64,000 bases of DNA. Origin: Candidatus Multivorans sp. (GTDB taxonomy: Bacteria > Acidobacteriota > Thermoanaerobaculia > Multivoradales > Multivoraceae). Each line of letters begins with the position of its first letter. Within the stretch, counting starts at the first letter, position 1. The notes beneath the pieces are model-generated. The model saw only the letters and a program-made list of their open reading frames with translations, had not been told where the DNA came from and made no database searches. The position numbers and the translations under genes were made by a program. This document shows positions 5,899 to 24,028 of the stretch, piece by piece. Where the stretch lies: the NCBI GenBank assembly GCA_965247095.1, contig OZ251997.1, positions 416,001 through 480,000 on the forward strand, written 5' to 3'.

Positions 5899-5899
5899 C

Positions 5900-6187: not shown

Positions 6188-6237
6188 AGCGCAGGAGTCT
6201 ACCATTGTGGCGCAGAATGGGAGGGTGCTCGGCTGTA

Positions 6238-6312: not shown

Positions 6313-6361
6313 GCCGTCGCTCCGCCGTGCGTTGCCCGTATCGGCGGGTCGGTCGGCCCGG

Positions 6362-6658
6362 CTACACGCAGATCGTCATGCTCCGGAAGGTCAGGTGCAT
6401 CCCGACGGCGGTCAAGAAGGGGGAGCCAAGAGCCTGGCCGACGGCCGTAAGGAGCGCTCCGGCGACCGAGTCGGTCCTGCAACTGTGGCTCCGCGCTCCT
6501 CCAGCCACTCTCGTCAGGTCGGTGACCGTGAGCTGGTCGAGGCCATCGTGGCCGATGGTCGAGGTGCCGCCCGCCATCACGGCGTCAGGCGGTGTGGCGA
6601 AGGAAGCGCCGACGCTCAATACAAGGGCGATCGATGCAGTGGCTAGGAATCTCGTCAT
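6362..6658 (-). CDS. Small secreted bacteriocin-like precursor B (Sec signal + double-Gly-like leader + Cys-bounded core), 98 aa
   Basis: RBS GAAAGGA before ATG; MTRFLATASIALVLSVGASFA | ...GLDQLTVTDLTRVAGG | ARSHSC...TICV; paralog at 8844-9146. Confidence 0.75.
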   Translation of the reverse strand: MTRFLATASIALVLSVGASFATPPDAVMAGGTSTIGHDGLDQLTVTDLTRVAGGARSHSCRTDSVAGALLTAVGQALGSPFLTAVGMHLTFRSMTICV

Positions 6659-6731
6659 GTCCAGTGGTCCTTTCGGTTGTAGAGGGTTGGGGGTAGCCAG
6701 GTGGTGGAGGCCGCTGTCCGCGGCTCTCGAG

Positions 6732-6764
6732 CCACCTATGGACCAAGACGGAATCGGCGCGGCT
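6732..6764 (-). promoter_or_regulatory. Conserved motif upstream of precursor B (putative promoter/operator)
   Basis: Minus strand AGCCGCGCCGATTCCGTCTTGGTCCATAGGTGG; near-identical to 9300-9334. Confidence 0.5.
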
Positions 6765-6861
6765 CCGTTCGTCTCGGTCACTTCGGTCCGAGCCGGCAGG
6801 GTCGTGTCCTTGCCTTGCTGTGAGCATGAGCCGCCCGACCGGAGGAGCCCGGGAAGCGGGC

Positions 6862-7551
6862 TCAGCCGCTGAGCATCTGCTCGCGGCGCTCCGCACGGGC
6901 GAAGGTCAGGGCGACGATGGCGGCGATGATGAGGGCAATGCCTATACGGTTCTGGACGGCCATGGTGAGCAACTGCTCGGCGTCGCCCCCTTTCACGGCG
7001 AGCGGGTTCCACAATGGCGAGATGCGCGGCTCGACCGAGAGGTATGCCATTCGAAGGTTCGGGGCGAGTAGTGCCATGGTTGCCATTGCGCCGGTGACCT
7101 CGCTTCGGAAGAGGGTGGCGAAACCCATCGCTGCTACCAGGTAGAAAGCGGCTCCCTGCGCCGTGCCGTAGATGGTCTGAACAACTGGAAAGGAAGTGAA
7201 GAAAGCAAAGGTAAGCACCGCCGTCGGCGTCAGACTTGCAAACAGGATCAGCCCTGCGGCAGCGAGTTTTCCGGTCCATACGCGACGGGTGCCGCCGGGT
7301 ACGGTGTAGGCGATCTCCAGGGTGCGCTCGTCGAGTTCGCCGGCGATGATCCGGCCGCCCAGGAAGACGGCGAGAACCGCGACCGGCGCACCAATCAGGG
7401 TGTTCTGTGCGTCGGCGGGCTCGAAGTTGGGCCGAAGCCCGGAGATGAGCAGTATCGCCTGAATTCCCAACCACGGCAGGGGCAGCAGCGGCAGCAGCCA
7501 GTAACGCGGGCCCCCGATCAGCACGGCGGAGAGACGGAGAACGGTGATCAT
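6862..7551 (-). CDS. ABC-2-type transporter permease, paralog 3
   Basis: 229 aa, about 6 TM segments, II.GELDERTLE ABC-2-like motif; close paralog of 7710-8399 and 9406-10098. Confidence 0.85.
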   Translation of the reverse strand: MITVLRLSAVLIGGPRYWLLPLLPLPWLGIQAILLISGLRPNFEPADAQNTLIGAPVAVLAVFLGGRIIAGELDERTLEIAYTVPGGTRRVWTGKLAAAGLILFASLTPTAVLTFAFFTSFPVVQTIYGTAQGAAFYLVAAMGFATLFRSEVTGAMATMALLAPNLRMAYLSVEPRISPLWNPLAVKGGDAEQLLTMAVQNRIGIALIIAAIVALTFARAERREQMLSG

Positions 7552-7709
7552 GCCGGAGCTCGGTCACCGGTCGCCTGGGCCGGCCAGAGGTAGCCGTCCC
7601 CGACCCGTCCGAGGCCATGGCTCTCGATGACCGGTGTAGTGCCCGCCACGACCGAGTTGGGCGGTACAGCGACAGAGGGGCAGACACTCAAGACAAGTGG
7701 CGACTCCTG

Positions 7710-8399
7710 CTAGCGGCTGAGCATCTTCTCGCGACGCTCCGCGCGAGCGAAGGTCAGGGCGACGATGGCGGCGATGGTGAGCGCGATGCCGATGCGGTTC
7801 TGGATGGTCATGGCGAGCAACTGCTCGGCGTCGGCTCCTTTCACGGCGAGCGGGTTCCAGAACGGCGAGATGCGCAGGTGCCCGCCGAAGCCGGTCACAG
7901 AGCCGTTCAAGCCGAATAGCGCAATCGTGACCAAGGCACCGCTCACCTCGCTGCGGAACAGCGTGGAGAAACCCATCGCCGCGGCTAGGTAGAAGCTGGC
8001 TCCTTGGCCAGCACCGTGGAGGGTCTGGACGACCGGAAACGCGGTGAAGAAGGCGAACGCCAGAACAGTCATCGGGATCAGGCTGCCAAGCAGGATCAGG
8101 CCTGCGGCGGTTAGTTTCCCCCACCAGACCCGATGGGCGCCGCCCGGGACGGTGTAGGCGACTTCAAGGGTGCGCTCGTCGAGTTCGCCGGTGATGATCC
8201 GGCCGCCGAGAAACACAGCGAGGATCGCTACTGGCGCACCGATCAAGGTGTTCTGTGCAGCGGCGGGTTCGAAGCCGGGACGGCCGGTGAACAGCAACAG
8301 CACCGCCTGAAGGCCTAGCCAAGTCAGTGGCAGCAGAGGTAGCAGCCAGTATCTTGGCCCTCCGATCAGCACGGCGGAAAGACGGACAACGGTTCTCAT
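7710..8399 (-). CDS. ABC-2-type transporter permease, paralog 2
   Basis: 229 aa, ITGELDERTLE motif; close paralog of both neighbours. Confidence 0.85.
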   Translation of the reverse strand: MRTVVRLSAVLIGGPRYWLLPLLPLTWLGLQAVLLLFTGRPGFEPAAAQNTLIGAPVAILAVFLGGRIITGELDERTLEVAYTVPGGAHRVWWGKLTAAGLILLGSLIPMTVLAFAFFTAFPVVQTLHGAGQGASFYLAAAMGFSTLFRSEVSGALVTIALFGLNGSVTGFGGHLRISPFWNPLAVKGADAEQLLAMTIQNRIGIALTIAAIVALTFARAERREKMLSR

Positions 8400-8523
8400 T
8401 GCAGCTCTCCCCCGCGGGTTGCTTGGCCCGACCGGAGGTAGGTGTCTCTAGGCGGCGCGACGCCTCCTTCGCCTTGCATGTAGAGGGTGGTGGGCGGAGG
8501 GACTGGGGTGCAGGTACTCCGGT

Positions 8524-8733
8524 TCAGCATGTCCCGTCGCGACGAGCGGCCATCCTGCCGACGATCCAGAGAGCTGGCAGCGAGAAGAGGGATGCGATGG
8601 CGACGAACAGGACCGGAGAACCGCCGACGAGGGCCAACAGCCGACCGCTCAACCAGCTTCGCCCGAAGGCGCTGCCCGGGGCAGGTCGCAGCGGCCGGTA
8701 GGGGCGGCTTTGTAGGTCCATGAACGTCGCCAT
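8524..8733 (-). CDS. Small membrane protein (69 aa), candidate immunity/accessory peptide
   Basis: RBS GAAGGA before ATG; hydrophobic stretch LLALVGGSPVLFVAIASLFSLPALWIVG followed by a basic tail; directly downstream of precursor A. Confidence 0.5.
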   Translation of the reverse strand: MATFMDLQSRPYRPLRPAPGSAFGRSWLSGRLLALVGGSPVLFVAIASLFSLPALWIVGRMAARRDGTC

Positions 8734-8843
8734 CGAGTCCTTCCAAACAGGAGCGTGATGCGCTATCCGCCCGCCTCTTTCCGGGGCCGAAGCCGGCACC
8801 CGCAATCAGAGAGTCTCATCGAGCGAGACGGCGCCGTTGTTGG

Positions 8844-9146
8844 CTAGACACACACAGCGTCCGCGAGGAACGGACCGGCCAACCCGGCAGCGTGCATGAG
8901 CCCCCTGCCCGTGTAGATCCCTACGAAGACAAAGGCCTCGCCCGTCGTCTCAAAAGCAGCAGTGCAAGCTCCGGACCACCAAGCTGCTCCCATCACGCCG
9001 ACCATCTCGGCATCCGCGAGTTGTTCGAGCCCGGGATTGTCGACGCCCGGATAGTCGCCCGCCACGGCCGTGACAGGCGGTTCTGCGAAGGCGCCGCCGA
9101 CACTCAGTACAAACGCTGCCACTGCGATAGATAGAACTTTCTTCAT
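8844..9146 (-). CDS. Small secreted bacteriocin-like precursor A (Sec signal + double-Gly-like leader + Cys-bounded core), 100 aa
   Basis: RBS GAAAGGA; MKKVLSIAVAAFVLSVGGAFA | ...GLEQLADAEMVGVMGA | AWWSGAC...AVCV; paralog at 6362-6658. Confidence 0.8.
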   Translation of the reverse strand: MKKVLSIAVAAFVLSVGGAFAEPPVTAVAGDYPGVDNPGLEQLADAEMVGVMGAAWWSGACTAAFETTGEAFVFVGIYTGRGLMHAAGLAGPFLADAVCV

Positions 9147-9299
9147 GATTCTTGTTCCTTTCCGTTTCATGGGTTCTTGTTGCCGTCGACCCCTTCGGAG
9201 AGGCCGACGACGCTGGTAGACGGGAAGGTCCTGCGGAAGCCGAGGAGGCTTCGCAGGTCCACCGCCGCGCAGCGCCTTACGGCGTGCAGGGACTGTGGA

Positions 9300-9405: not shown

Positions 9406-10098
9406 TCAGCCGCCGAGCATCTTCTCGCGGCGTTCGGCGCGGGCGAATGTCAGGGCGACGATGGCGGCGATCGCGAGGGCGATGCCGATCCGGTTCTGGA
9501 CGCTCATCGCGAGCATCTGGTCGGCGTCGGCTCGGTCCACCGAGAGGGGGTTCCAGAACGGCGAGATGCGGAGGGGGTTTTCGCCGAAGCCGGTGATCAG
9601 GCCGTTGAGGCCAAGGAGGCCGGTCGTGGTCAGGGCGCCGGCCACCTCGCTGCGGAACAGGGTGGCGAGCCCCATGGCTGCAACCAGGTAGAAGGTGACG
9701 CCCTGGGCCGCGCCGTAGAGACTCTGGAAGACGGGGAAGGAGGTGAAGAAGGCGAACGTGACGGACGCCATCAAGGCCAGACTGGCGAGTAGCAACAGGC
9801 CGGCTGCGGCGAGCTTGCCGAGCCAGACGCGGTGAGCGCCGCCGGGTACGGTGTAGGCGATCTCAAGAGAGCGCTGGTCGAGTTCGCCGGTGATGATCCG
9901 CCCGCCCAGGAACACGGCGAGAACGGCCACCGGCATTCCGATCAGTGTGTTCTGGGCGGCGTCACGTTCGAAGCCCGTCGCGGCGCCGGCCAACAGCAGG
10001 ATCGCCTGCACGGCTAGCCACAGTAGCGGCAGCAGGGGCAGCAACCAGTAGCGCCGCCCTGCCAGCAGCACCGCGGACAGACGCAGCACGGCGATCAC
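9406..10098 (-). CDS. ABC-2-type transporter permease, paralog 1
   Basis: 230 aa; GTGA overlap with the stop codon of the upstream RND-ABC fusion; ITGELDQRSLE motif. Confidence 0.88.
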   Translation of the reverse strand: MIAVLRLSAVLLAGRRYWLLPLLPLLWLAVQAILLLAGAATGFERDAAQNTLIGMPVAVLAVFLGGRIITGELDQRSLEIAYTVPGGAHRVWLGKLAAAGLLLLASLALMASVTFAFFTSFPVFQSLYGAAQGVTFYLVAAMGLATLFRSEVAGALTTTGLLGLNGLITGFGENPLRISPFWNPLSVDRADADQMLAMSVQNRIGIALAIAAIVALTFARAERREKMLGG

Positions 10099-13000
10099 GT
10101 CGGGGCTCTGCCGCGCGCCGCCTGCGCCAGCCAGAGGTAGCCGTCCTCGAGCGTGGGTTCGACTGGTTCGGCCCGCCGATCGGGGCGGTCGGCAGCCAGC
10201 ACGCGCAGGCGGCTGCTGCCGTCGGGTTCCGGTTGGCGATCGGCGAGCACGGACGCCTCGGGAAGCTCCGGCTCCTCATCTCCGGGCGCCGTCCATGACC
10301 AGACACGGCCTTCGGCCTCTCGGGACAGCGCCGCCGGCTCGCCGTCGAACACCATGCGGCCGCCGGTGAGCACCAGTACGCGCTCGCAGGCCACCGCCAC
10401 GTCCTCGACGACGTGGGTCGAGAAGAGGACGATGCGGTCCTTGGCCAGGCGCGAGAGCAGGTTGCGGAAGCGGACGCGCTCGCGTGGGTCGAGGCCGACG
10501 GTCGGCTCGTCGACGACGATGATCGGCGGCAGGCGCAACAGCGTGCGGGCCACCGCGACCCGCTGCCGCATGCCGCCGGAGTAGCCGCCGATCGGTTCGT
10601 CCGCTCGCTCGTCGAGTCCGACTTCGCGCAGCAGGGAGCCGATGCGCTCCGCTCGCTCCGACGCCTCGATCTGGTAGAGCGCGGCGTAGTACTCGAGGTA
10701 CTGCCGGGCCGTCAGGCGCGCCGGCAGGCCGGCGTCCTGCGGCAGGTAGCCGACGTAGCGGGCCAGCCGTTTCCGTATCCTGAGCAGGGGCACGCCGCCC
10801 AGCGTGATCCGGCCGCGGGTCGAATCCAGAATGCCGGTCACCTGGCGGAGCAGGGTCGTCTTGCCCGCGCCGTTCGGACCCAGCACGCCGACCATGCCCC
10901 GCTCGACATCGAAGCTCACCGCGGCCAGCGCCTTCACCGTGTCGATCGGCAGATCGAGACCGAAGATCCGGGTTGCTGCCGCCCGCCAGAGGCGGATCAA
11001 CATGCCGCGCCAGCCACGGGTGCGCCGGCGGCGGGTTGACCGCTGCTCCCGGCGCACCGTCTCGAGACGGGCCGTGCGACGTCCGAGTTGGATCAGAAGG
11101 ATGATCGTGGAGAGGATGGCCACGACGATGAACCCGCCCACCGCGGGCTCGGTGGCGAGAGCCGGACCGACCAGGCCCGCGAGAAGCGCCCAGGGCAGCA
11201 GGGCGGACAGAACGCCCTCGATGCCGCCCGGCTCGACTCGACCAAGCGCGTCGGCGCGGCCGCGGGCACGCCGGACCTCGGTCAGCAGCCGGGAAGCGAT
11301 CAGCAGTGCGGCAATCCAGGCGCCCAGTTGGATCAGGTCGGCACGGAACCTCATGGCCAGGGCGACCGCGCCGGCGAGCAACAGGAGCAAGGGCAGGATG
11401 CGGTCCCGCGCGTCGGCGGGGTGGAAGGCCTGACCGCCGCGGTCGACGACCTGCTTGGCGAAGTCGGTCGATGCCCGCAGCGCCCGGCGCACCGGCCCCG
11501 GCCGGCCGTAGGTCTTGCGCAGGTGACGGACCACCAGCCGGGGCGGTCCGGCGTCGGCCTCCGGTTCCGGTGTCGGCGGTTTTGGCACCAGCCACACGGT
11601 GAGCCCGAGCAGGGCGCCGGCGATGAGCACGGTCGTCGTGACCTGCCAGAACATGGACTCGATCACGCCGAGAACGAACAACGGGGCGGTGGCCGCGATC
11701 ACCGCGCCGAGCCAGGTCAGAACCACCCAGGGTCCGACGCGGCTGAAGACATCGTCCAGGCGCCGCAGAAAGACGTAGCCGACCGGGATGACGAGCAGCG
11801 TGAGCACGGTCGAGGTCAGAAGACCGCCGATCACCAGGGTCGCGAAGGGCGGCCAGAGCTCGTTCTCGCGTCCCGTGGCGATGGCCAGCGGTGCGAGCGC
11901 CGCGATCGTCGTCGCGCTGGTCATCAACACCGGACGCGCGCGCTCGCGAACCGCGGCCAGGGCGGCGGCGCCCGCACTCCAGCCGGCGCCGAGTACCCGT
12001 TGCTGCATCCGGTCGACGAGCAGAACCGCCGGGTTCACCGCCAGCCCGAGGAGGACGAGCGCCCCGAGCAGCGCCATCGGATCGAGCCCGATGCCGGAGA
12101 ACATCAGCGCCCACAGCGAGCCGAGCAGGGCGAGCGGCAGCGCGAGCAGAACAAGGATCGGCAGGGTCATCGACTCGAACGCCACCGCCAGAACCAGGAA
12201 CACGAGCATCACGACCGGCGCCAGGACGCGCCGGAACCAGCTCGTGTTCTCGTCCGAGCGGTCGAGCTCGATTGTCGTTCCGGGCGGACGGTGGATGCTG
12301 GCAAGCGCCTCGTCCAGGTTGCGGTCGAATTCCAGCCGCGCCGGTCCGCCGCTTGGTACGTCGGACGAGACGCTGTAGATGACCTCCCGCTCGCGGCGGC
12401 CGTTGTGGTGTGTGATCACCGGGGAAGCCGGCGCGCGGCGCACCTGCGCCAAGGCGGCTACTGGCAGGACGCCAGCGCTCGTGGAGACGCGGAGCCGGGA
12501 CAGGCCGCTCAGCGACGCCTCGCGCTCGAAACTGCTGCCGTCCACGACCCGGGCGTCACTGGGTCGGTTCTCCGCGCGCTGGACGACGATCGGAAGCTCA
12601 CGGCCGTTCGGAAGCGGGAAGCCGCTGTTGATGCTCGTACCCTCACGGCCGGCGAGACTCAGCATCGGCAGCACATCGTCGAGCAGGACGCCGAAGGTGT
12701 CGAAGGCGCGACGGTTCGGGCTGACGTGGATCTCGTCGGGGCCGGGCCGTGAGGCTAGAAAGGCGCCGCTGATCCCCTCGATCTCCTTGAGCCGCTCGGC
12801 GACCTCCGTGGCCAGACCGGTCAACTGGTCGTTGTCGTTTCCGGACAGGATGACCCGTTTCGGCCCTGCCCCGAGCAACTCCTGGGCGCCGCCGCCACCG
12901 CCGGGACCGCCGCCCCGACCGCCCGGGCCTTCGCCTTCGCCGGGTCGCAGAATCTCGGTACCGGCGCGCCGGTTCGCGGCCCGGCGTACGAGCTGACGGA

Positions 13001-14912
13001 TCCGCGCCGCGGTCAGTTCCTCGGGGCGGTCCTCGAGTGCCTCGAGGTGGACCGTCAACGAGCCCCCCTCCTCGCGGATCATGCTTTCGACGCGGTCCAC
13101 GCCGTCGACTTCATGGACCGCCTCCAGAGGCTGGAAGGCGCGCACCGCGGAATCGAGCGAACTCCGGCTCTCGTCGAGGCGCACGGAGAACTGGACCTGG
13201 TCCGCGATCTCTGCTTCTGGCGACACTGTGTTTCCGAGCACAAAGGGCAGGGCCACGAGCGCGGTGACGACGACGGCGAGAGCCACCGACGTGATCCAGC
13301 TCGCAGGCCGCCTCAGTGCCGAGGCGAGAACTCCTGCAAACAGGATGCGGATCGGGTCGGGCGGCGCCTGTCCGGCGAAGCGTTCGCGGCGCTGTCGCAA
13401 TCGGGCCAGCCGGCGGATCGCCGCGGGCGCGGCGAGATGGCGGGCCAGCAGCGGTACGAGACCGATCGCCACCAACAGGGAACCGAACAGCGGCAGCAGG
13501 ATCGAGAGGGCGGCGATCGCGATCAGGTTGCGGATCATCGACGATCCCAGGTCGACGAGCAGCGGCGGCACGAAGACGACCGCGGTGGTCACGGACGCGG
13601 CGATGATCGCGCGGGCGGTGCGGCGGATGCCTCCCGCCGCGGCGTCGTCGGGACTTCGGCCCCGCTCGAGGCGGCGTTGGACGGACTCGAAGACCACGAC
13701 GCTGTTGTCGACCAGCAGTCCGACGCCGACCGCAAGGCCGAAGAGGCTGATCAGGTTCAGGGTCTGGCCGGCCAGGTAGAGGAAGGACAGCGCCGCGGCC
13801 AGGCTGACCGGCACCGCGATCGCTACCACCGCCACGGCCCGCCATTGGCGCAGGAAGAGGAACAGGACCGCAAGGGCGATCAGGAAGCCTGAGAGACCGA
13901 GGTTTCTCAGACGGCCGATCTGGGTCTCGACGAGTTCCGCGGCGTCGAGGCTGATGAGCAGATGAATGCCGAGGGGCTCGAGATCTGCGTTGACCTCCTC
14001 GATCCGGCGGCGCAGGTCGCGGCCGAGGCGAACCAGGTTCGCGCCCTCTTCCTGGAAGAGCAAGACCCCAACCGAGGGGTCGCCGTTGACCCGGAACAGC
14101 ATTTGTCGGCGGCCGGGGCCGACTTCGATCTCGGCGACGTGGCGCACCAGAGCCGGCCGGTCCGGCACGATCCGAACCTCGCCCATGGACACCGGGCCGA
14201 CGGGACGGCCGTCCAGCATCACCGCCGTTCGCCCGGCTTCGTCTTCCAGGCTGCCGAGGTAGCGCAAGCGGCCGGCCGCGGCGCGCACCGCCGCCGTCAC
14301 CTGCTCCGTGGTGACGCCGAGCGCTGCACAGCGGTTCGGGTCGACCCAGACGGTCAACTGCCGCGACGCACCGCCGCCGACGATCGCCTGACTGACGCCC
14401 GGCACCGCGGCCAGCCGCGGCGTGACGAGTTCCACGACCAGGTCGTGCAGGGCGTTCTGGTCGGCGGCGCCGGTGACCTGCAGGACCATGGCGAAGCTGG
14501 AAATGGCACTGCTGTCCTGGGCCTGGACGTCCAGGAAAGCGTTCCGCGGCTGGGTGCGGGCGAGGTCCGCGGCGATCCGGCGCACCTCCAGCTCGCGGAC
14601 CTTCAGGTCGACGCCGCGTTCGAAGAGGATCGTGAAGCTGCCGCCGGCGCCGCTGACCTCGCCCCAGGTCTCGGCGACCCGCGGCAGGGTCCGTACCCGG
14701 GCCTCGAGCGGCATCAGGATCTCCCGCTCGATCGTCTCCGGTTCGCTGCCCGGGCGGAAGAAGTTGACGTAGAGCTGGTCGCCGGTCAGGGCCGGGAAGA
14801 GTTCGACCGGCAGTCGTCGCCAGGCGAACAGCCCCAGGATCACAAACCCCAGGAAGAACATCGCCACGGCGACGGGGCGGCGAATGGCAAGGGTGTCGAG
14901 ACCGGCTCTCAC
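10095..14912 (-). CDS. RND (AcrB/CusA-like) permease fused to a C-terminal ABC ATPase
   Basis: RND motifs RRPVAV, LPVELFP, GLLVDNSVVVFE, RARPVLMT, P.ATLVIGGL; C-terminal Walker A GPNGAGKTT, signature YSGGMRQR, Walker B IIVVDEPT, STH; a single 1605-aa ORF. Confidence 0.9.
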   Translation of the reverse strand: MRAGLDTLAIRRPVAVAMFFLGFVILGLFAWRRLPVELFPALTGDQLYVNFFRPGSEPETIEREILMPLEARVRTLPRVAETWGEVSGAGGSFTILFERGVDLKVRELEVRRIAADLARTQPRNAFLDVQAQDSSAISSFAMVLQVTGAADQNALHDLVVELVTPRLAAVPGVSQAIVGGGASRQLTVWVDPNRCAALGVTTEQVTAAVRAAAGRLRYLGSLEDEAGRTAVMLDGRPVGPVSMGEVRIVPDRPALVRHVAEIEVGPGRRQMLFRVNGDPSVGVLLFQEEGANLVRLGRDLRRRIEEVNADLEPLGIHLLISLDAAELVETQIGRLRNLGLSGFLIALAVLFLFLRQWRAVAVVAIAVPVSLAAALSFLYLAGQTLNLISLFGLAVGVGLLVDNSVVVFESVQRRLERGRSPDDAAAGGIRRTARAIIAASVTTAVVFVPPLLVDLGSSMIRNLIAIAALSILLPLFGSLLVAIGLVPLLARHLAAPAAIRRLARLRQRRERFAGQAPPDPIRILFAGVLASALRRPASWITSVALAVVVTALVALPFVLGNTVSPEAEIADQVQFSVRLDESRSSLDSAVRAFQPLEAVHEVDGVDRVESMIREEGGSLTVHLEALEDRPEELTAARIRQLVRRAANRRAGTEILRPGEGEGPGGRGGGPGGGGGAQELLGAGPKRVILSGNDNDQLTGLATEVAERLKEIEGISGAFLASRPGPDEIHVSPNRRAFDTFGVLLDDVLPMLSLAGREGTSINSGFPLPNGRELPIVVQRAENRPSDARVVDGSSFEREASLSGLSRLRVSTSAGVLPVAALAQVRRAPASPVITHHNGRREREVIYSVSSDVPSGGPARLEFDRNLDEALASIHRPPGTTIELDRSDENTSWFRRVLAPVVMLVFLVLAVAFESMTLPILVLLALPLALLGSLWALMFSGIGLDPMALLGALVLLGLAVNPAVLLVDRMQQRVLGAGWSAGAAALAAVRERARPVLMTSATTIAALAPLAIATGRENELWPPFATLVIGGLLTSTVLTLLVIPVGYVFLRRLDDVFSRVGPWVVLTWLGAVIAATAPLFVLGVIESMFWQVTTTVLIAGALLGLTVWLVPKPPTPEPEADAGPPRLVVRHLRKTYGRPGPVRRALRASTDFAKQVVDRGGQAFHPADARDRILPLLLLLAGAVALAMRFRADLIQLGAWIAALLIASRLLTEVRRARGRADALGRVEPGGIEGVLSALLPWALLAGLVGPALATEPAVGGFIVVAILSTIILLIQLGRRTARLETVRREQRSTRRRRTRGWRGMLIRLWRAAATRIFGLDLPIDTVKALAAVSFDVERGMVGVLGPNGAGKTTLLRQVTGILDSTRGRITLGGVPLLRIRKRLARYVGYLPQDAGLPARLTARQYLEYYAALYQIEASERAERIGSLLREVGLDERADEPIGGYSGGMRQRVAVARTLLRLPPIIVVDEPTVGLDPRERVRFRNLLSRLAKDRIVLFSTHVVEDVAVACERVLVLTGGRMVFDGEPAALSREAEGRVWSWTAPGDEEPELPEASVLADRQPEPDGSSRLRVLAADRPDRRAEPVEPTLEDGYLWLAQAARGRAPT

Positions 14913-14925
14913 GTCGCTTTCCGGT

Positions 14926-17900
14926 TCAGGCGCCGGACGGGTCGCGGCGGCGCCGGGTCAGTCGCATCGAGTCGAGTATCAGGTAGAGGCAGGGCAGCAC
15001 GAGGAGCGAGCCGACGGTGGAGGTGAGGATGCCGCCGATGATCGTGTACGCCATCGGGCTTCGCAGTTCCGCGGCTTCGCCGGCGCCTATGGCAAGCGGC
15101 GCCAGGACCAGGACAGTGGTCAGGGTCGTCATCAGGATCGGCCGCAGGCGGATCGCGGCGGCCCGGGCCAGTGCGGTGCGCCGCTCCATGCCGGCGGCGA
15201 GCAGCCGGCGGGCGGTGGCAATCAGGAGGACCGCGTCGTTCACCGCCACGCCCGCGAGCACGATGAGGCCGAGCAGCGCCATGACACCGACCGGCCGTCC
15301 GAGGAAGCCGAGGGTGCAGGCGACGCCGACCAGGGCCAGGGGGATCGAGAACAACACCGTGAGCGGTTGGAGCAGGGACTCGAACGTTCCGGCGAGGACC
15401 ATCAGCACGAGAACGAGCGCCAGCAGCCCCGCCCAGCGCAGTTCGCCGACGGCGCGCTCGCGTTCCTCTTCCTCGCCGGCGAGACGGACGATCAGACCGG
15501 AGGGCAGGTCGGTTGCTGCGATCGTCTCGCCGGCTGCCGCGATCGCGCGCGGGTAGTCGCTGTCGTCGGCGACCCGGGCGGTCACCTGGGCGACGCGGCG
15601 CTGGTCGCGGCGGAAGACCTCGCGGGCGCCCTCGGCGGGGACGAAGCGGGCGACTTGGCCGAGGGCGAGGTCCGCGCCGTCGTTGCTCGTGAAGCGCAGT
15701 TTGGCGAGTTCCTCGGGCCGCGGCTGGGGCAGAGAGAGGACGACGTGGCGCTCCTCGTCTCCAGTCGAGAGCAGGGTGACCCTGCGGCCGTCGAGTGCGG
15801 CCTGGAGCACCCGGGCGATCGTTTCCAGGCCGACGCCGAGGCCGTCGGCCATCGCGCGGTCGAGTTCGATCCGCAGTTCCGGCGGTCCGCCCTCGAACGA
15901 GGAGCGGACGTTCCAGAGTTCGGATCGCACAGCCATCGCGTCGCGCAACCTGGTGGCCGCCAGGCGCAGGTCGGGCAGCGACTGGCCCGCGATCTCGACC
16001 ACGATCGGCGGTCCCGCGGAGCCGAGCGCGCGCGATAGCGCCGACGCCCCGACCTCCCACTCGATCTCGGTATCCGGCAGGTCTTGGAAGTTGGGCTGCA
16101 GGGCGGTCACGATCTGGCCGCCGGTCGGCCCTTCGGCGGACAGCCGGACGAGCAGGCGGGCCGTGTTCTCCTCAGTCAGCTCCGTGGTCACGAGCCGATC
16201 GTCCTCGGGCAGGCGGCCGACCTCGGCCTGGATCGCCTGCAGGTGCTCGCCGGCAGCCTGCCTGACCGCCTCTTCCAGCGTCGCCACGGCGCCGGCGGTG
16301 GCCTCGACGCGCTGGCCGGGCGGGCCGACCATGCGCACCGAGAACTGCCGCGGGTCGGCAGGCGGCAGCAGTTCGCTGCCCAGTCCGAGCAGAACGTAGA
16401 CGGCGCCGGCGGCGGCGAGCACCGCCACTCCGACGACCAGCCAGCGAAGCTGAAGCAGGCCGAGAACCAGGCGCTCGACGGCGCCGAAGGCCCAGCCCAG
16501 CGGACGCGCTTCGTCTTCGTCAGCGTCCACCGGCATGCTGATGGATGCCGCCGCCGATGCGTCGGCCGTGGGCTCGGGCGCGGCGGTTTGCGGTTTGGCG
16601 CGCGGCAGGAGCCAGCGCGACAGGGCCGGAATCAGCATGATCGCGACCGCCAGGGAGGCGCCGAGGGAGGCGGTGACGGTGAAGGCGATGCCTTCGATCA
16701 GGCGCGCCGCCAGACCCTGGACGAAGAGGACGGGCAGGAAGACAACGCACGTAGTGAGCGTCGAGGCGGCAATCGCGCCCGCGACCTCGCCCGTGCCCCT
16801 GGCGGCCGTGTCGGCTGCCGAGGCGCCGGGGCGGTGGCGGCGGTGGATGCTCTCCACGACGACGATCGCGTTGTCGACCAGCATGCCGGCGCCGAGCGCC
16901 AGCCCGGCCAGGGTGATGATGTTCAGAGAGTGCCCCCACAGCCGCATCGCGAACAGCGCGACGAACAGGGACACCGGCACCGCTGAAGCGACGACCAAGG
17001 TCGGACCGAGGGAGCGCAGGAACAGCGCCAGCACGACGACCGCCAGGGCGATGCCGATCAGCGCCGCGTTCGTCAGGTCGTCCATCGCGTCCTCGATCAG
17101 CGCGGCGTCGTCGTTGACCATCGAGACGAGGACCCGGGGCAGGTCGCGCTCGAGGTCGTCGAGCGCCGCGCGCACGGTGCGCGAGACCTCCACGGTGTTG
17201 GCGCCCGCCTCCTTGAACACCTGCAGGCCGACGCCCTCCTGGCCGTTCACCCGCACCAGGTGGTCGATCTCGGCGTGTGCGAGTTCGACCGTGGCGACGT
17301 CGGAGACCCGGATCGGCTGACGGACCTGCCGGCCTCCCTCCGCCTGCTGGGTGCGGTAGCGCACGACGACCCGCTCGACATCGCGGGAGTTCCGGAACCG
17401 GGAGATGCCTCGAACGAGATAGACCTGACCGCCGTCCTCCAGGGTGCCGGCGTCGATGTCGACGTTCTCGGCCACGAGGCGTTGCTCCAGTTGGTCCAAG
17501 GTGACGCCGAACGCCTGCAGGCGGTAGCGGTCGACGCGTACGCGGACCTCCAGTTCCCGCCCTCCGAGGACCCGCACCTCGGCAACGTCGGCGAGCTGCT
17601 CCATGGCCGGCGCCACCTGACGGCGCGCCAGGCGGCGGAGCTCGGCGAGATCAGGTCCTTCCGGCTCGGCGGCCAGCCCAAGGGTGATCACCGGCGACTG
17701 CCTCGGATCGAGTTGGCGGACCAGGACCTCGTCGACTTCGGGGTCGGCCGCGACCGGATTGACCGCCTTCTGCACGTCGATCAGCGCCAGGTCCATGTCG
17801 GCGTCCCAGTCGAAGCGGACGGTGGCGATCAGGCGGCCGGTGCGGGCGACCTGGTGCACCTCGCGGAGGCCGCGCACCGTGAACAGGCGCTGCTCGACCT

Positions 17901-18120
17901 GCTCGCCGTAGAGCCGCTCCATCTCGGTCGGCGGCCGGTCGCCGGAACGCACGGCGACGACGATGGTCGGCGAACGCAGGTCGGGCAGGAGGTCGATCGG
18001 CAGTTCACGCCACGACATCCAGCCCACCAAGGCGAATGCCAGGGCGGTGACGGTGACCGCTACGGGCCGGCGCGCAGCCAGGCGGGCGGGGCCGAAGGTC
18101 TCACCGGATGTTCGAGTCAT
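14926..18120 (-). CDS. RND efflux transporter permease subunit
   Basis: LPIDLLP, GMLVDNAIVVVE, RLRPILMTT, PMAYTIIGG; 1064 aa. Confidence 0.93.
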   Translation of the reverse strand: MTRTSGETFGPARLAARRPVAVTVTALAFALVGWMSWRELPIDLLPDLRSPTIVVAVRSGDRPPTEMERLYGEQVEQRLFTVRGLREVHQVARTGRLIATVRFDWDADMDLALIDVQKAVNPVAADPEVDEVLVRQLDPRQSPVITLGLAAEPEGPDLAELRRLARRQVAPAMEQLADVAEVRVLGGRELEVRVRVDRYRLQAFGVTLDQLEQRLVAENVDIDAGTLEDGGQVYLVRGISRFRNSRDVERVVVRYRTQQAEGGRQVRQPIRVSDVATVELAHAEIDHLVRVNGQEGVGLQVFKEAGANTVEVSRTVRAALDDLERDLPRVLVSMVNDDAALIEDAMDDLTNAALIGIALAVVVLALFLRSLGPTLVVASAVPVSLFVALFAMRLWGHSLNIITLAGLALGAGMLVDNAIVVVESIHRRHRPGASAADTAARGTGEVAGAIAASTLTTCVVFLPVLFVQGLAARLIEGIAFTVTASLGASLAVAIMLIPALSRWLLPRAKPQTAAPEPTADASAAASISMPVDADEDEARPLGWAFGAVERLVLGLLQLRWLVVGVAVLAAAGAVYVLLGLGSELLPPADPRQFSVRMVGPPGQRVEATAGAVATLEEAVRQAAGEHLQAIQAEVGRLPEDDRLVTTELTEENTARLLVRLSAEGPTGGQIVTALQPNFQDLPDTEIEWEVGASALSRALGSAGPPIVVEIAGQSLPDLRLAATRLRDAMAVRSELWNVRSSFEGGPPELRIELDRAMADGLGVGLETIARVLQAALDGRRVTLLSTGDEERHVVLSLPQPRPEELAKLRFTSNDGADLALGQVARFVPAEGAREVFRRDQRRVAQVTARVADDSDYPRAIAAAGETIAATDLPSGLIVRLAGEEEERERAVGELRWAGLLALVLVLMVLAGTFESLLQPLTVLFSIPLALVGVACTLGFLGRPVGVMALLGLIVLAGVAVNDAVLLIATARRLLAAGMERRTALARAAAIRLRPILMTTLTTVLVLAPLAIGAGEAAELRSPMAYTIIGGILTSTVGSLLVLPCLYLILDSMRLTRRRRDPSGA

Positions 18121-18159: not shown

Positions 18160-19260
18160 TTATTGGGAAACCCGGACGCGGGTGCCGTCGGTCAGGGTTT
18201 CGAGGCCGCGAACGACGACCCGCTCGCCGAGCTCCAGCCCCTGGCGAATCTCGGTGATCTCGTCGTCGCCGAGACCGAGAACGACTTCGCGCCGCACCGC
18301 GCGCTGGCCGTCGAGGACGAAGACGACGCGCCGGCCGCCGCGCTCGGTAACCGCCTCGCGCGGAATGACGGGGACGTCGTTGCGCTGCTCGACGACCAGG
18401 GTCACTTCGACGAACATGCCCGGCCGCAGCAGGCCGCCGGGATTGCGCACCGCCACCTCGGCGCGGAAGGTGTGGGTGACCGGGTCGACCTCGGGGGACA
18501 GGCGGACGACCCCGCCTTCGAACGTCTGGCCCTCCCAGGCGAAGTGCCTGAGCCGGCCCCGCTGCCCGGGGTGGACCCGCGCCAGTTCGGGGCCCACGAG
18601 GTCGATGTCGGCGATCAGGGAGGCGACCGGAGCGATCCGGGCCACCTGGAAGCCCCGGGAAACGAGCTGGCCGTCGGCGATCGGCATGCCGTTCGGGTCG
18701 CGGGCGAGTTCCATCAGCACGCCGCCGATCGGGGTCAGCATCTTCGCGCGGTCCTCGGTAAGCAGGCTCTGCTCCCAGGTCGCCTTCGCGTCTTCGAGCG
18801 CGATCTCGGCGCGGCGCAGCTCTTCGGCACTGATCAGTTCCTGCTCGAACAGCTTGGCGCGGGCGTCGCGTTCGGCCTCGGCGCCCAGGTAGGCTTGGTG
18901 GGTCGCCTCGACCCGGGCCGCGAGCCGTGCGTCCTCGCCGGTGACCTCCGCGATCATCTGCTCGGGGACGACGCGGTCGCCTTCGGCCAGCCGGTCGCCG
19001 GAACCGTTGCGGCCGATCAGCAGTCTCCCCGGCGTCTCGACCTGCAGGACGATGCTCTCGGCCGCTCGCAGAGTGCCGGTGGCGACGATCAGATCCTCGA
19101 CGTTGCCGGTTTCGACCTCGGCCGCGGTGACCGGCACCAGGAAGTCGACGGGGTCCGTGCTGCCGCCGCCTTCGCAGGCGACGATCACGGCGCAGGCGGC
19201 TATCGCGAGGCCCGCATGCCGGAGGCCGGCGATCGGGCGGGAGGGCTGCCGCGGGCTCAT
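18160..19260 (-). CDS. RND periplasmic adaptor (membrane fusion protein), lipoprotein
   Basis: ATGA overlap with the upstream gene; lipobox-like VIVAC; PEVDPVTHTF, LRPGMFV, IPREAV, GL..GERVVVRG. Confidence 0.9.
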   Translation of the reverse strand: MSPRQPSRPIAGLRHAGLAIAACAVIVACEGGGSTDPVDFLVPVTAAEVETGNVEDLIVATGTLRAAESIVLQVETPGRLLIGRNGSGDRLAEGDRVVPEQMIAEVTGEDARLAARVEATHQAYLGAEAERDARAKLFEQELISAEELRRAEIALEDAKATWEQSLLTEDRAKMLTPIGGVLMELARDPNGMPIADGQLVSRGFQVARIAPVASLIADIDLVGPELARVHPGQRGRLRHFAWEGQTFEGGVVRLSPEVDPVTHTFRAEVAVRNPGGLLRPGMFVEVTLVVEQRNDVPVIPREAVTERGGRRVVFVLDGQRAVRREVVLGLGDDEITEIRQGLELGERVVVRGLETLTDGTRVRVSQ

Positions 19261-22200
19261 AGCCCCGCGCCCCCGGTCTCGGCGCGGCCGGCGGCGGCGC
19301 TGTTGTCGAGCCGCACGAAGCGCACCGCGTCCGCGGCGACCGCTTTGCCGGAGGTCTCGTCGCTCAGGACCAGTTCGGTCGGGCCGCCGGCCAGATCGAA
19401 GTCGCCCAGCACCGCCCATCCCGCGCCCGCGGCCGCGGCGTCGAAGTCGATCGGCCGGGAGACGCCGCCGTTCTGCAACTCCAGGTCGTAGGTGCCGAGA
19501 GCCAGCCCCAGGTTCACCGAGACCCGTACGCCGCCGTCGTCGTCCCCTCCTCTTCGTGGTGCGTCTCCACCTCCGTCGCCGACCCGCACTTCCCGACGCA
19601 CGGCCGTGGCGCCGGCTGGCAGGGGCGAGAGCGACGGCACGTGCAGTTCGACCCGCCAGCGGCCGTCTGCCGGCAACTCCGTCCGGTAGATCGCGCGGCT
19701 GTTCCCTTCGCCCGCGGGCGCCAGGGCGGTCGTGCGGCGGTAGCGGCCCCAACTGGTGGGCTGTGCGTAGCGCGACCATTCGGTCGGCGGTCCGCCGAAG
19801 CTCTGGTAGACGAGCAGACCCTGATCCGTCTGGTTCGACGGCGCGAAGAAGCCAGCGAGACCGCCCTGCAGCCGGAAGCCGCCGGCATCCGCTTCATCCG
19901 TCTCGATCGAGAAGCCGGGGTCCAGGTCGTCGACGACGATCATGTCGGTCGTTGACTCGAGGAAGGCGGGCAGCCAGTCGGCCGGCCGCGTGCCGCGCAG
20001 TGGTTCGGCATCGACGATCGTCTCGTTGTTGACGCTCGGCAGATCGATCGGGAACTCCCGGCGGTTCAGCGACAGGTAAGGTGAAGCCAGCATCCTGCCC
20101 GGCACCCTGGAAGTGACCAGACCGAATTCGACGGAGCTGTTTCCCGGGATCAGGGTCGGCTCGCTGGACTCCCAGCGCACGCCGCTCGGTGCGCGGACGG
20201 CGTAGCGGAGCCGGAACAGGCCCGGAGCCTCCTCGCCGTTGTGGACGAAGAGACGGGTCTGGTACTGCGGCAGGCCCTGGTCGTCGTCCGCCAGCCGCAC
20301 GAGTTCGGCGGGGGATACGACGAAGCCCGGCAGGTCGGTCTGGTGGAGGAAGTCGCCGACCAGGCCGGCGAGGTCCAGGCCGGCTTCCTGAGCGGCCCGT
20401 TCGAGGTCGGCGGCGGTGAAGGTCGATCCCCGGTGGTCGCGCATGAGGTTCGCGAGCATCGCGGCGGTCCGTTCCCGGCCGGCGCCGTCCAGAATTGCGC
20501 CGGCAAGGGCCGAAGTCTTCAGATAGAGCGCGTTCAACGCTTTCTTCGGCTCCTCTTCGACGTCCATTTCCGTCAGCGAGGCGCCGAGAACGGCGTCCCA
20601 TACCTCGGGGCGGTCGGTGAGGCTCTGTACGATGGTGCTGGAGACCGAGGAGGCGCCTCCGCCGAGCTGGCTGAAGATGGCGCCCTGCAACACGCTGGCG
20701 ATCGTCCAGCCGAACTCGCGGTCGAACAGGTGGGCCGAGAAGTACGATTCGCCGCCGTTCACCAGCCGGTTCACCAGGTTGTTGCACAGTTCCTCGAGCG
20801 CCAGCGCCTCCGGACCGCGGGCGCCGGTCTGGTACATGAACAGATTGCGGACACCGCCGACCTCCACGTTGCCGCCCGAGAAGTCGTTGCGGAAGAACTG
20901 CTGCAGCCCGGAGGCCTTTGCCCGGGGCAGACCGCCCTCCTGCTCCTCGAACCGCTCCGGGTTGCGGAACAGGAACTCGAAGCGAGCGGTCGGCAGGCTG
21001 CTCTCGCTGAGCAGCAGCATGCCCGGCGGCGCGCGCTCGGTGTCCATCCGCCAGCCGCCGCCGTAGGAGCGCAGGGTCCAGGGAACTTCAACCAGGGTGA
21101 GCTGACGGTAGGGGTAGGGCAGGCCCAGCTCGCGCGCGCTGGTGAAGCGCTCGGCGGCGACTGCCTCGATCTCTTCCCGGGCGTCGGCGAAGAGCTCCAC
21201 GTTTCTCAGATGGCGGGGGTGGAGGAGCAGTTCGATCTCGACGCCCTCGACCTCCGTCGTCCGGCGATCGAACCGACCGGCGACCAGGGCCGCTTCGGGC
21301 ACGACTGCCACGGGTGCGAACCGTTGCCGTTCGCCGGCCGGCTCGGCTCTGCCTGGCCCGGCGACCGTCCAGCCCGAGGGGGCGCCGACCTCCAGGTCGA
21401 GTTCGAAGAAGTCTCTGGGACGCCTTCGCGGATCGGTGAGGCCGACCGACGTGCCGGGGCGCGGCATCCAGGCCAGCGCGGCGGGCAGCGCGACGTAGCG
21501 GCGCTCCGCAAAGCCGTTCAGGGCGCCGAGAAGGATGATCTGGGCGTCCTGGAACTTGATCCGGTTGAAGTCGATCGCGGAATCCAGGTACGCGAAGCGA
21601 AGGTCGGGCCGTCCGTGGGCGCGCAGGCGAAGGTCGACGGCCTCGCCCGCGGCCGGCGAGCGCCCGAGGTCGACCTCGAGCAGGCCGTCGCGGTGGTTGA
21701 ATCCGAGCGTCGCGCCGGCGGTATCCTCAATGGCGTCGACCTGGAGGCCGGGGTTCAGGCTGAAGAGAGCCTGCGAACCGCCGGCGGCGAGGAACCGGAC
21801 GTTGACATCGAGGGTCAGGCGGCCGCGCGGTGCGATGTCGACGGCGCCGTGGATCTGTTCCAGGTCAAGGACCGGTTCGCTCTGGCGTGCCGTGTGGGCG
21901 ATGCGCCAGTCGTCGATTTCGTCGACCCGGTTGCCGGCCGTGACCGCGGCGGCTGCGATCGTTCCGATGGCCGCCGCCAGGAGGCCGGCGCCGGCGGTGG
22001 CCCACAGGCGTCGCCGGGTGTCGTCGAGCCGGGGATGGACGGCGACGGCGACCGCAAGCATCCCAACGGCCAGCGCCGCGACCGTGGCCCGGTTCATCAA
22101 GTTGAAGGCGGTCCAGATCTGGGGCGCGACCTCGGAAGGATTGGTGCCGAAGCCGCCGTTGATCGCCAGCATCGGCAGGACGTAGGTCGGCACGCGGAAG

Positions 22201-23806: not shown

Positions 23807-24028
23807 TGTCGTAGTCAGAGTGTTTCCTCCCGAAGGTCTATACGGAAGCGGGCAGCGCTTGGTTTACACCGCGTGTCCCTTCCAGGATCCGGTGACCGTG
23901 GGCTGAAACCCCGCGGGGCCGTCCGCGTACTCGTATAGTATGCCGGCGCATACCGGATACCCTTTTTCTGCCAACATCTCTGGACACCCCCGAGTTTCTC
24001 GACATTCCAAAAGGGAGGCCTCCACACA

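Follow-up and report, generated by a model that had tools for sequence, protein, structure and literature searches.

A family of polymorphic, Cys-bounded peptides in Candidatus Multivorans with tandem Sec-type signal and double-glycine-type leader, probably cut outside the cytoplasm

Double-glycine leaders are known from peptides whose processing takes place in the cytoplasm and is coupled to ABC export. The class IIb two-peptide bacteriocins and the Caulobacter peptides CdzC/CdzD leave straight from the cytoplasm by PCAT or type I export, with no Sec signal, and in the Sec-dependent class II bacteriocins of Gram-positive bacteria (enterocin P type) a Sec signal replaces the double-glycine leader. 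In polymorphic cassettes of the CDI and colicin kind, the toxin is an enzyme domain and immunity comes from a protein dedicated to it.

FapD, from the Pseudomonas Fap amyloid system, is described in PMC5557850 as an active periplasmic C39 peptidase acting on Sec-exported proteins, and the same paper calls its target unclear and the peptidase class uncharacterised. The E. coli heat-stable enterotoxin II (STII) is passed from Sec to DsbA and on to MacAB-TolC (reviewed in PMC5985334). For double-glycine leaders, PMC6363468 gives Gly at -2 followed by Gly, Ala or Ser at -1, and the recognition positions named there are those kept in the precursor family described below.

The locus analysed here (Table 1) lies in a window of 64,000 nucleotides from an uncultured, soil-type acidobacterium, the window being the whole stretch of DNA under analysis. 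Its leaders resemble those cut by LahT150, PCAT1 and ComA (G at -2, hydrophobic residues at -4, -7 and -12, an acidic residue at -8, and a conserved leader before a variable core), and the candidate peptidase has the PF03412 domain with the catalytic Q/C/H/D set. Unlike in PCAT systems, the leader comes after a 21-residue Sec-type signal instead of at the precursor N-terminus, E, R or K frequently occupies its -1 position, and the peptidase is stand-alone, membrane-anchored and predicted to be periplasmic, with no ABC exporter fused to it. Like FapD, this peptidase is predicted to work in the periplasm on Sec-exported proteins; it differs in being anchored by an N-terminal hydrophobic segment and in its neighbours, which are ~100-aa Cys-bounded peptides with hydrophobic cores and ABC/RND transporters, as opposed to amyloid subunits with the FapF channel. 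With STII, the locus shares a small peptide with a Sec-type signal and Cys residues suited to a periplasmic disulfide. STII is expelled from the periplasm by a tripartite pump that has an ABC component, and the operon here encodes an adaptor, RND proteins and an ABC ATPase, whereas the hybrid RND/RND-ABC pump with ABC-2 permeases, the lack of an outer-membrane factor gene and a proposed extra C39-type step set it apart from MacAB-TolC.

The likeness of the cores to class II bacteriocins and CdzC/CdzD is an analogy: small, Gly-rich hydrophobic peptides with small-xxx-small motifs and a double-glycine-type leader, encoded two side by side, are common to both, but here a Sec signal is present, and where those systems have a small immunity protein the partner gene encodes an ABC-2 permease. 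Enterocin P likewise joins a bacteriocin-type peptide to a Sec signal, which in our precursors stands in tandem with the leader. As in CDI and colicin cassettes, a conserved N-terminal recombination anchor precedes a variable C-terminal part exchanged with the next gene; the exchanged unit, however, is a ~37-residue peptide core plus part of a transporter permease. Our literature search found no paper on peptides with both a Sec signal and a double-glycine leader and with bacteriocin-like cores.

Precursor genes and the surrounding pump operon

Table 1. Features of the precursor and pump locus, in window positions (residue numbers refer to the encoded precursor)
Feature	Position	Strand	Remarks
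Precursor B	6362..6658	-	98 aa; 44-aa tail (residues 55-98) with Cys60 and Cys97
Precursor B, signal	residues 1-21 = 6596-6658	-	
Precursor B, leader motif	residues 40-54 = 6497-6541	-	VAGG at end
ABC-2-type permease 3	6862..7551	-	229 aa; upstream of precursor B
Third precursor, decayed remnant	~7593..7703	-	between permeases 2 and 3; E 8.5e-5
ABC-2-type permease 2	7710..8399	-	229 aa; directly downstream of precursor A; diverges along with A core
Precursor A	8844..9146	-	100 aa; 46-aa tail (residues 55-100) with Cys61 and Cys99
Precursor A, signal peptide	residues 1-21 = 9084-9146	-	
Precursor A, pro-region	residues 22-39		disordered
Precursor A, double-glycine-type leader helix	residues 40-54 = 8985-9029	-	
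ABC-2-type permease 1	9406..10098	-	230 aa; the pump operon's base permease; found in every congener, with or without precursors
RND permease with C-terminal ABC ATPase fusion	10095..14912	-	1605 aa; kept in every congener examined
Second RND permease	14926..18120	-	1064 aa
Membrane-fusion (periplasmic adaptor) protein	18160..19263	-	HlyD_D23 domain; start uncertain
1183-aa protein	19257..22808	-	N-terminal ABC-2-like membrane part and large extracytoplasmic part with Golvesin_C
ABC ATPase	22805..23806	-	333 aa; first gene of the operon

The two paralogous precursors put forward in a preliminary description of this DNA are real reading frames: A and B are 33% identical (BLASTP, E 3e-12), both contain the quoted motifs VLSVGxxFAxPP (with its cut marked before xPP) and GL(E/D)QLxxx(E/D)(M/L)xxVxG(A/G), and their tails have the lengths given there, with a final 32 residues that align ungapped and end in CV and a second Cys near the tail start. 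In both genes an AAAGGA-type ribosome-binding site precedes the ATG by 9-10 nt. Of the third precursor, just the end of the signal, the PP and the start of the pro-region are left, and the same decayed remnant is carried by two congeners. Neither A nor B belongs to a Pfam family (Pfam-A scan), and an NCBIfam scan returned a single chance-level match far under its cut-off, with no bacteriocin model matched. The AF2 model of precursor A has helices at 39-79, 82-89 and 91-99 (pLDDT 85-88 across residues 61-90), and a Foldseek search of the PDB with the precursor model gave no relative (best E 1.9). Sequence scans of positions 6000-10200 found no promoter-like site and one terminator-like site, fewer than expected from shuffled sequence.

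The precursors always lie directly behind the RND-ABC gene and are interleaved with its permeases; precursor B is not followed by a permease. The adaptor, the two RND proteins and the ABC parts adjoin the peptide genes in 20 of 21 stretches (those reaching that far), the RND-fused ABC ATPase presumably powers the ABC-2 permeases, and Pfam and NCBIfam annotation revealed no outer-membrane factor gene within the pump operon. The pump serves a function independent of the peptides, since four congeners hold the RND-ABC operon intact with one permease and yet no precursor, and since RND-ABC fusion proteins are widespread elsewhere.

Distribution of the family, leader conservation and core exchange

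When a profile was built from the two sequences and run on related genomes, as had been proposed, full-length relatives (proteins of ~100 aa) were found in 29 of 36 genomes of Candidatus Multivorans, a name of which the literature search returned bare mentions only, vs. none of 24 other genomes of the order. In wider searches, 35 of 5.8 billion proteins matched the same profile, as did 29 representatives out of 1.84 billion. At least two full precursors occur in 16 of 21 loci. A pattern scan (signal, x-G-x, Cys-bounded tail) gave 12 matches in the whole 4.6-Mb genome, five of which are A, B and three peptides beside the C39 peptidase discussed below.

The window does hold many spurious long reading frames, as GC-rich DNA may, e.g., 23864..25507(-), on the strand opposite a real gene. 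We nonetheless give practically no credence to A and B being chance frames of that kind, a reading rejected by conservation: full-length conservation at a fixed position in 29 of 36 congeners, Cys and leader positions kept amid variable DNA, and the presence of ribosome-binding sites all speak against it, and on this comparative footing the pair is more than a chance occurrence. The frame at 23864..25507(-) was itself rejected as an operon gene and synteny marker, being an antisense artefact of a plus-strand gene.

Among the 89 unique family members, on which all conservation counts are based, both Cys are invariant (89/89) and the leader is strongly constrained, with Gly at -2 (G53) in 88, V/L/I/A at -4 in 88, M/L/I at -7 in 87, D/E at -8 in 83 and L at -12 in 74. 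The -1 residue (position 54) is G in 40, A in 20, E in 12, R in 11 and another in 6, with K among the non-small ones, and position 55 is small in every member in which position 54 is not (29/29). The GG-like motif that homologues were expected to conserve held for its first residue and was kept in part at its second, which is G or A in just 60 of the 89; because the other 29 depart from the published GG/GA/GS rule, this misfit counts against the proposed cleavage. A home-made signal-peptide rule (net positive n-region, 12-residue hydrophobic window, small -3/-1 site) was satisfied by 82 of the 89 members, the seven failures being mostly truncated, frame-shifted or mis-started sequences.

Variability is concentrated behind the leader, as mean column entropy rises from 1.54 bits in the signal and 1.79 in the leader to 2.64 in the core. 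Among 74 pairs with leader identity of at least 85%, core identity was below 35% in 43. At the DNA level, all four comparisons with a congener that carries another core show identity of 77-98% giving way to 8-55% exactly at the G53-C61 codons, and in one of these (L045) low identity continues through most of the downstream permease, with the upstream permease at 85-100%. The core between the invariant Cys is hypervariable and, on this evidence, swapped as a cassette along with the downstream ABC-2 permease. A partial Mantel test controlled for RND identity (19 loci, i.e., 21 minus L058 and L061) gave r 0.47 between core and downstream permease vs. r 0.24 between core and upstream permease, mean identity being 0.71-0.80 for the permeases and 0.32 for the cores. 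The correlation could be plain linkage, which alone would fit this result, so that we take it as supportive and not decisive. The transporter permease nevertheless appears to be the peptides' variable partner.

The cores themselves span 32-37 residues between the Cys, of which ~60% are G/A/L/V/I (G 15%, A 15%, L 12%, V 10.5%), with a mean of 3.6 small-xxx-small motifs per core. A conserved leader before a variable core would also be expected of secreted, pherotype-like quorum signals, processed by C39 as ComC-type pheromones are and with the core setting the signal type, and quorum peptides likewise use double-glycine leaders (PMC6363468, introduction). We consider this quite unlikely: the length, composition and hairpin-like character of the cores favour insertion into a membrane over binding to a receptor, the neighbour that co-varies with them is a permease, and the annotated part of the window showed neither a sensor kinase nor a response regulator beside the genes.

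A stand-alone C39 peptidase with a predicted periplasmic active site

The genome has one PF03412 match, a stand-alone protein of 183 aa (110.5 bits vs. a cut-off of 22, E 7e-32), and therefore no PCAT; for that reason we rejected the N-terminal hydrophobic stretch of the precursors as part of a cytoplasmically processed leader. Its closest solved structure is LahT150 (6mpz, E 1e-14), and Q59, C65, H139 and D153/154 are invariant among 12 C39 homologues. All 12 have a hydrophobic 17-mer (mean hydropathy >2.1), preceded by 3-10 K/R in 11; in the protein of this genome an N-terminal arginine cluster comes with the hydrophobic anchor. From this membrane anchor we predict a periplasmic C39 domain and active site, with the positive-inside rule as the single basis.

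A stand-alone C39 gene of this kind is present in 42 of 42 genomes of the genus. Here it lies outside the precursor locus, 1.9 Mb away, after a TlpA-like redoxin gene and before the three peptides of precursor-like build. The same surroundings recur elsewhere: a redoxin gene is directly upstream in 30 of 30 loci, and small frames with a signal, a GG-like motif and a Cys-bounded core are found within 1.5 kb of the C39 gene in 29 of these 30. In two congeners, a second, extra C39 gene adjoins family members at the RND-ABC locus: it stands between a permease gene and a precursor gene at the syntenic site in G020, and between a second RND-ABC gene and a precursor gene in G032. The earlier suggestion of a Sec-type signal ahead of a true double-glycine-type leader, with recognition of that leader in the periplasm, is thus backed by comparative evidence, i.e., the kept leader positions, the lack of a PCAT, the anchored C39, its peptide neighbours and the C39 copies beside family members.

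A predicted complex of the C39 domain with precursor A scored 0.37 vs. 0.04 for the best of three controls, with runs sharing at least 62% of contacts and a partner pLDDT of at least 42. Of 157 solved complexes, 116 reach the mark for this score, against 2 of 215 mismatches, and passes at 0.60 or below comprise 18 of those 157 and both passing mismatches; since similar complexes have already been solved, the prediction shows likeness only.

The precursors might instead be exported and stay uncut at the glycine, with the helix as a pump-binding handle, as accessory or regulatory subunits (periplasmic or membrane-inserted) of the RND-ABC/ABC-2 machine or as its dedicated cargo. Their constant position behind the RND-ABC gene and among its permeases, the non-canonical -1 residue and the distant peptidase in this genome would fit such a role. 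It is unlikely in our judgement, as structural subunits would not be expected to be hypervariable, cassette-swapped and missing from congeners with an intact pump, C39 genes adjoin family members in the two genomes above, and peptides of the same build accompany C39 in its home locus, which is without any RND gene.

FapD and the Gly/Ala-rich cores also bring to mind surface fibre or amyloid subunits, as in Fap and Fil-type systems with known or suspected periplasmic C39 (a literature search on Fil fimbriae and C39 found nothing useful). This seems very improbable, because short cores, closed by two Cys and nearly wholly different between close relatives, are unlike a polymerising subunit, and Pfam/NCBIfam scans with general models recognised no FapF-type channel or usher-like gene in either locus.

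A proposed maturation route

Overall, A and B probably represent a new sort of membrane peptide that is swappable, closed by a disulfide and cut to size outside the cytoplasm. The fuller proposal, which we hold with evenly balanced confidence, is that they are precursors of a polymorphic bacteriocin-like peptide pair matured outside the cytoplasm in five steps. The N-terminal signal would direct Sec export, with signal peptidase I cutting after the conserved A-F-A, and a periplasmic disulfide would then join the invariant Cys at both ends of the predicted helix-turn-helix hairpin. As gene context suggests, the helix with L-12, D/E-8, M/L-7, V-4 and G-2 would dock on the anchored periplasmic C39, whose cut after G53-x54 would free a Gly/Ala-rich hydrophobic hairpin of 44-46 residues. 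Competitors or non-kin may then have their membranes attacked by the mature peptides, perhaps by A and B acting as a pair, and the ABC-2 permease just downstream of the core, driven by the RND-fused ATPase, may clear the producer's own peptide (self-protection and/or export). The RND pump, as put forward earlier, might plausibly export the peptide from the periplasm; more speculatively, the MFP/RND part of the operon would move it across the outer membrane, as MacAB-TolC does with STII.

Several observations run against this route, namely the peptidase outside the locus here, the absence of a bacteriocin model match, precursor B with no permease after it, the occurrence of the pump operon without precursors, cores far more variable than the permeases, the missing outer-membrane factor gene and the weak complex score.

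It is tempting to speculate further, in a broader and distinctly more doubtful version, on an undescribed diderm route to bacteriocin-like or kin-discrimination peptides, in which Sec export would be followed by periplasmic leader removal by an anchored C39 (reduced by the TlpA-like redoxin), disulfide closure of the glycine-zipper hairpin and expulsion by the RND-ABC hybrid, with ABC-2 permeases as type-specific immunity partners and core-permease cassettes exchanged at the leader/core junction. If this were true, periplasmic C39 peptidases would gain in these peptides their first clear natural substrates.

The locus points to a Sec-first making of polymorphic membrane-active peptides in two-membrane bacteria, an arrangement that genome-mining tools expecting an N-terminal leader and a neighbouring PCAT would miss. 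It also provides candidate substrates that are short, abundant and easy to synthesise and whose cut site is predicted; this makes the specificity and topology of the periplasmic C39 class directly testable. The 1183-aa protein has an ectodomain that was weighed as a peptidase in place of C39 and is kept as a lead only, its atlas neighbours being of the Golvesin_C type (0.98), vs. just 0.84 for an M1 peptidase.

The precursor family and its anatomy

Precursors A and B, two genes for peptides of ~100 aa, are paralogous as proposed in the preliminary description (33% identity, E 3e-12), and every motif it listed was found in both. The profile search of relatives it called for was also positive: a two-sequence profile retrieved full-length members from 29 of 36 same-genus genomes, and from 0 of 24 genomes representing eleven other families of the order. 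In larger collections, the A+B profile matched 35 proteins out of 5.8 billion, and a 36-sequence profile only 29 representatives at E ≤ 0.001 among 1.84 billion, while a scan of both precursors found no family model in Pfam or NCBIfam. Given the hits within the genus, the zeros elsewhere in the order and the few database matches, this family is real and well conserved, but narrow in range. One member, from a single congener, is longer: its protein record (P0063) has 117 aa, and an inserted Ala/Asp/Pro-rich repeat separates its signal from its leader.

We aligned 89 unique sequences, pooled from the protein-collection, representative-set and genome-stretch matches. Residues 1-21 resemble a Sec signal: the start is basic, a hydrophobic stretch comes next, and a conserved A-F-A stands ahead of E-P-P. 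A simple home-made signal rule was passed by 82 of the 89 (the seven failing sequences are mostly truncated, frame-shifted or mis-started), in agreement with the Sec-type signal originally placed ahead of the leader. Residues 22-39 are variable, and disordered in the AlphaFold2 model. Residues 40-54 fit a double-glycine leader (residue 54 being position -1), with L at -12 in 74/89, D/E at -8 in 83/89, M/L/I at -7 in 87/89, V/L/I/A at -4 in 88/89 and G at -2 in 88/89; these are the positions named in the LahT150 paper (PMC6363468). Of the GG-like motif expected from the first reading, the -2 glycine is thus retained among homologues, but -1 is G or A in only 60/89 and otherwise E, R, K or another residue, the following residue then being small in every case.

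Neither cysteine varies (89/89). The first follows G53 by 4-10 residues (8 residues in 50/89), and the second stands at or almost at the end of the precursor; the core between them spans 32-37 residues, has a high content of G, A, L and V, and holds on average 3.6 small-xxx-small motifs. In the AlphaFold2 precursor model (mean pLDDT 65.6, and 85-88 across residues 61-90), a helix at 39-79 is followed by a turn and by helices at 82-89 and 91-99, so that the predicted fold is a hairpin with the cysteines on its two ends.

An exchangeable module beside a conserved pump

In the window, both precursors belong to one long minus-strand operon, in which an ABC ATPase is followed by pump genes and then by an array of ABC-2 permeases and precursors (see table). 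The operon begins at this ATPase, since the minus-strand ORF further upstream (23864-25507) was rejected as an antisense shadow of a plus-strand gene. The latter weakly matches cytochrome c and the C-terminal domain of a copper monooxygenase. The 1183-aa protein combines its ABC-2-like membrane domain with an outer domain of ~900 aa ending in a Golvesin_C match; in the atlas, its neighbours either lack a name or are labelled "xanthan lyase family", with M1 peptidase as no more than a weak lead. On the downstream flank, an AbrB/MazE-like antitoxin and PIN-domain toxin pair forms the same array boundary in most congeners.

Features of the window and of related loci
Feature	Location	Coordinates	Strand	Remark
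ABC ATPase	window	22805-23806	minus	first operon gene
ABC-2-like permease with large outer domain	window	19257-22808	minus	1183 aa
Membrane-fusion protein	window	18160-19263	minus	
RND permease	window	14926-18120	minus	
RND permease fused to ABC ATPase (RND-ABC)	window	10095-14912	minus	1605 aa
ABC-2 permease 1	window	9406-10098	minus	array start
Precursor A	window	8844-9146	minus	
69-codon ORF	window	8524-8733	minus	
ABC-2 permease 2	window	7710-8399	minus	
Decayed precursor remnant	window	about 7593-7703	minus	
ABC-2 permease 3	window	6862-7551	minus	
Precursor B	window	6362-6658	minus	
AbrB/MazE-like and PIN pair	window	5509-6241	minus	
Gene with weak copper monooxygenase and cytochrome c matches	window	24029-25510	plus	
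Anchored C39 peptidase	own genome	2,307,414-2,307,965		183 aa
Second peptide locus	own genome (G000:C1)	2,306,900-2,312,600		L031 7918-13591
Longer family member	L060	1090-1665	minus	
G071 locus	L123 (G071:C78)	5681-7501		
G259 locus	L124 (G259:C440)	4107-5145		

Across 21 stretches sampled from the genus, pump gene order is conserved in all 20 that reach upstream past the RND-ABC gene. This gene is followed by permease, precursor and permease in 19 stretches, often with another precursor behind them, and two or more full precursors occur in 16 of the 21. Among ten further loci, six have a precursor (one of these divergent) and four (in G014, G009, G004 and G007) consist of RND-ABC, one permease and the flanks. 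Because these four retain the pump without any precursor, we interpret the precursor and its following permease as a unit added to a base pump. The RND-ABC protein itself, in which a complete RND permease is extended by further membrane segments and, at the C-terminus, an ABC ATPase, is kept in all congeners examined. Its C-terminal part matches 1307 proteins of 882-2809 aa (E ≤ 1e-5), so such fusions are not special to the genus; some carry the source label "AcrB/ABC-type multidrug transport ATPase", these names being generic only. Among 151 genomes of the class, the full fusion was found in the genus only (21/21, including the window's genome).

Within the precursor, variability is concentrated in the core: mean column entropy is 1.54 bits for the signal, 1.79 for the leader and 2.64 for the core, and 43 of the 74 pairs with leader identity ≥ 85% have a core identity < 35%. 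DNA comparison of the window with six close congeners (60-nt bins) located the breakpoint of this cassette. Identity stays at ≥ 83% across the gene in the two congeners that share the window's core type, whereas all four with another core type fall from 77-98% to 8-55% in the bin holding the G53-C61 codons. For L045, which is among these four, identity remains low across the spacer and roughly three quarters of the permease downstream before rising to 95%, while the upstream permease stays at 85-100%. Consistently, a partial Mantel test controlled for RND identity (19 loci, L058 and L061 dropped) linked the core to the downstream permease (r 0.47, p 0.0005), compared with r 0.24 for the upstream one. 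Linkage alone could explain this correlation, and the permeases are much less variable than the cores (mean identity 0.71-0.80 vs. 0.32).

The 444 bp that separate precursor A from permease 2 contain an ORF of 69 codons that has a ribosome-binding site (GGAAGGA) and a single hydrophobic segment; it could encode a small, immunity-like membrane protein or be noise. Its conservation is uninformative, as both congeners of the same core type match this spacer at 95-100% identity.

A stand-alone, membrane-anchored C39 peptidase

The only Peptidase_C39 match in the window's genome is a stand-alone 183-aa protein encoded 1.9 Mb from the window locus; this genome therefore has no peptidase-containing ABC transporter (PCAT). 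The protein consists of an arginine cluster, a 17-residue hydrophobic segment and the C39 domain, which is predicted by the positive-inside rule to face the periplasm. Among 12 homologues, the hydrophobic segment is present in all, 3-10 K/R precede it in 11, and the catalytic set Q59, C65, H139 and D153/154 is invariant. The closest solved structures are LahT150, PCAT1 and ComA.

At least one anchored C39 gene occurs in each of 42 genus genomes. In 30 of 30 loci, the gene immediately upstream of the C39 gene encodes a membrane-anchored redoxin. In 29 of the 30, between one and three small ORFs within 1.5 kb combine a signal and a GG-like motif with a Gly-rich core bounded by cysteines; this pattern matches 12 times over the whole 4.6-Mb genome, five of these being the real ones. 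Two genomes link the peptidase to the A/B family directly: at the syntenic site of G020 (same AbrB/PIN flank), a permease, an anchored C39 and a family precursor follow in order, and G032 has an anchored C39 and a family precursor behind a second RND-ABC gene. In a class sample of 301 genomes (including the unpublished G207, which bears none of the claims made here), C39 matches almost always sit in PCAT-like frames of 495-1833 aa. Three listed matches outside the genus depart from this pattern, and the two examined (G071 and G259) are both stand-alone and N-terminally anchored. Behind each come small ORFs that combine a signal and a GG motif with a Cys-rich Gly-zipper core, and an ABC ATPase gene lies next. 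Judging from these gene arrangements, the pairing of anchored C39 and signal/GG/Cys peptides may extend beyond the genus.

Complex prediction for the C39 domain (48-183) and precursor A (22-100) gave a score of 0.37 (runs 0.36-0.38) vs. 0.04 for the best of three controls, with contact agreement ≥ 62% and partner pLDDT ≥ 42; of 157 solved complexes, 116 reach the mark applied, as do 2 of 215 mismatched pairs, but only 18 of the solved complexes, plus both of these mismatches, pass at ≤ 0.60. The model thus hints that precursor A might dock on the C39 domain, and represents a likeness rather than a proof, since similar complexes are already solved.

Proposed maturation and a second peptide locus

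We propose that the precursor is exported by Sec with cleavage of its signal, that a disulfide would form between the two cysteines in the periplasm, and that the anchored C39 would cut after G53-x54. The mature hairpin would be membrane-active, singly or as an A+B pair, and the downstream permease would serve in self-protection or as an exporter, powered by the ATPase domain of the RND-ABC protein. More speculatively, the adaptor and RND proteins of the operon might carry the peptide across the outer membrane, much as MacAB-TolC does for E. coli heat-stable enterotoxin II (STII; PMC5985334); the pump operon contains no outer-membrane factor gene, and four loci keep the pump with no precursor.

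Compared with double-glycine leader systems, the A/B system would work alike, but lacks one defining feature, namely a leader that starts the protein and is removed by a PCAT in the cytoplasm. Within the full-text literature outside subscription journals, the only published periplasmic C39 peptidase found was FapD, from the Pseudomonas Fap amyloid system (PMC5557850), and the FapD paper was also the only relevant one for stand-alone C39 peptidases and for double-glycine leaders behind Sec signals; it calls the target unclear and the periplasmic C39 class uncharacterised. The A/B peptides are promising candidate substrates for such peptidases, and their system suggests a new variation on the double-glycine peptide theme.

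The C39 gene of the window's genome is itself part of a second peptide locus. Alongside the membrane-anchored redoxin and the peptidase, this locus encodes a Cys/Pro-rich secreted protein of ~107 aa (present in only 9 of 30 related C39 loci), three peptides with a signal, a GG motif and a Cys-bounded glycine-zipper core, and, in addition, a polytopic membrane protein of 566 aa and an ABC ATPase.
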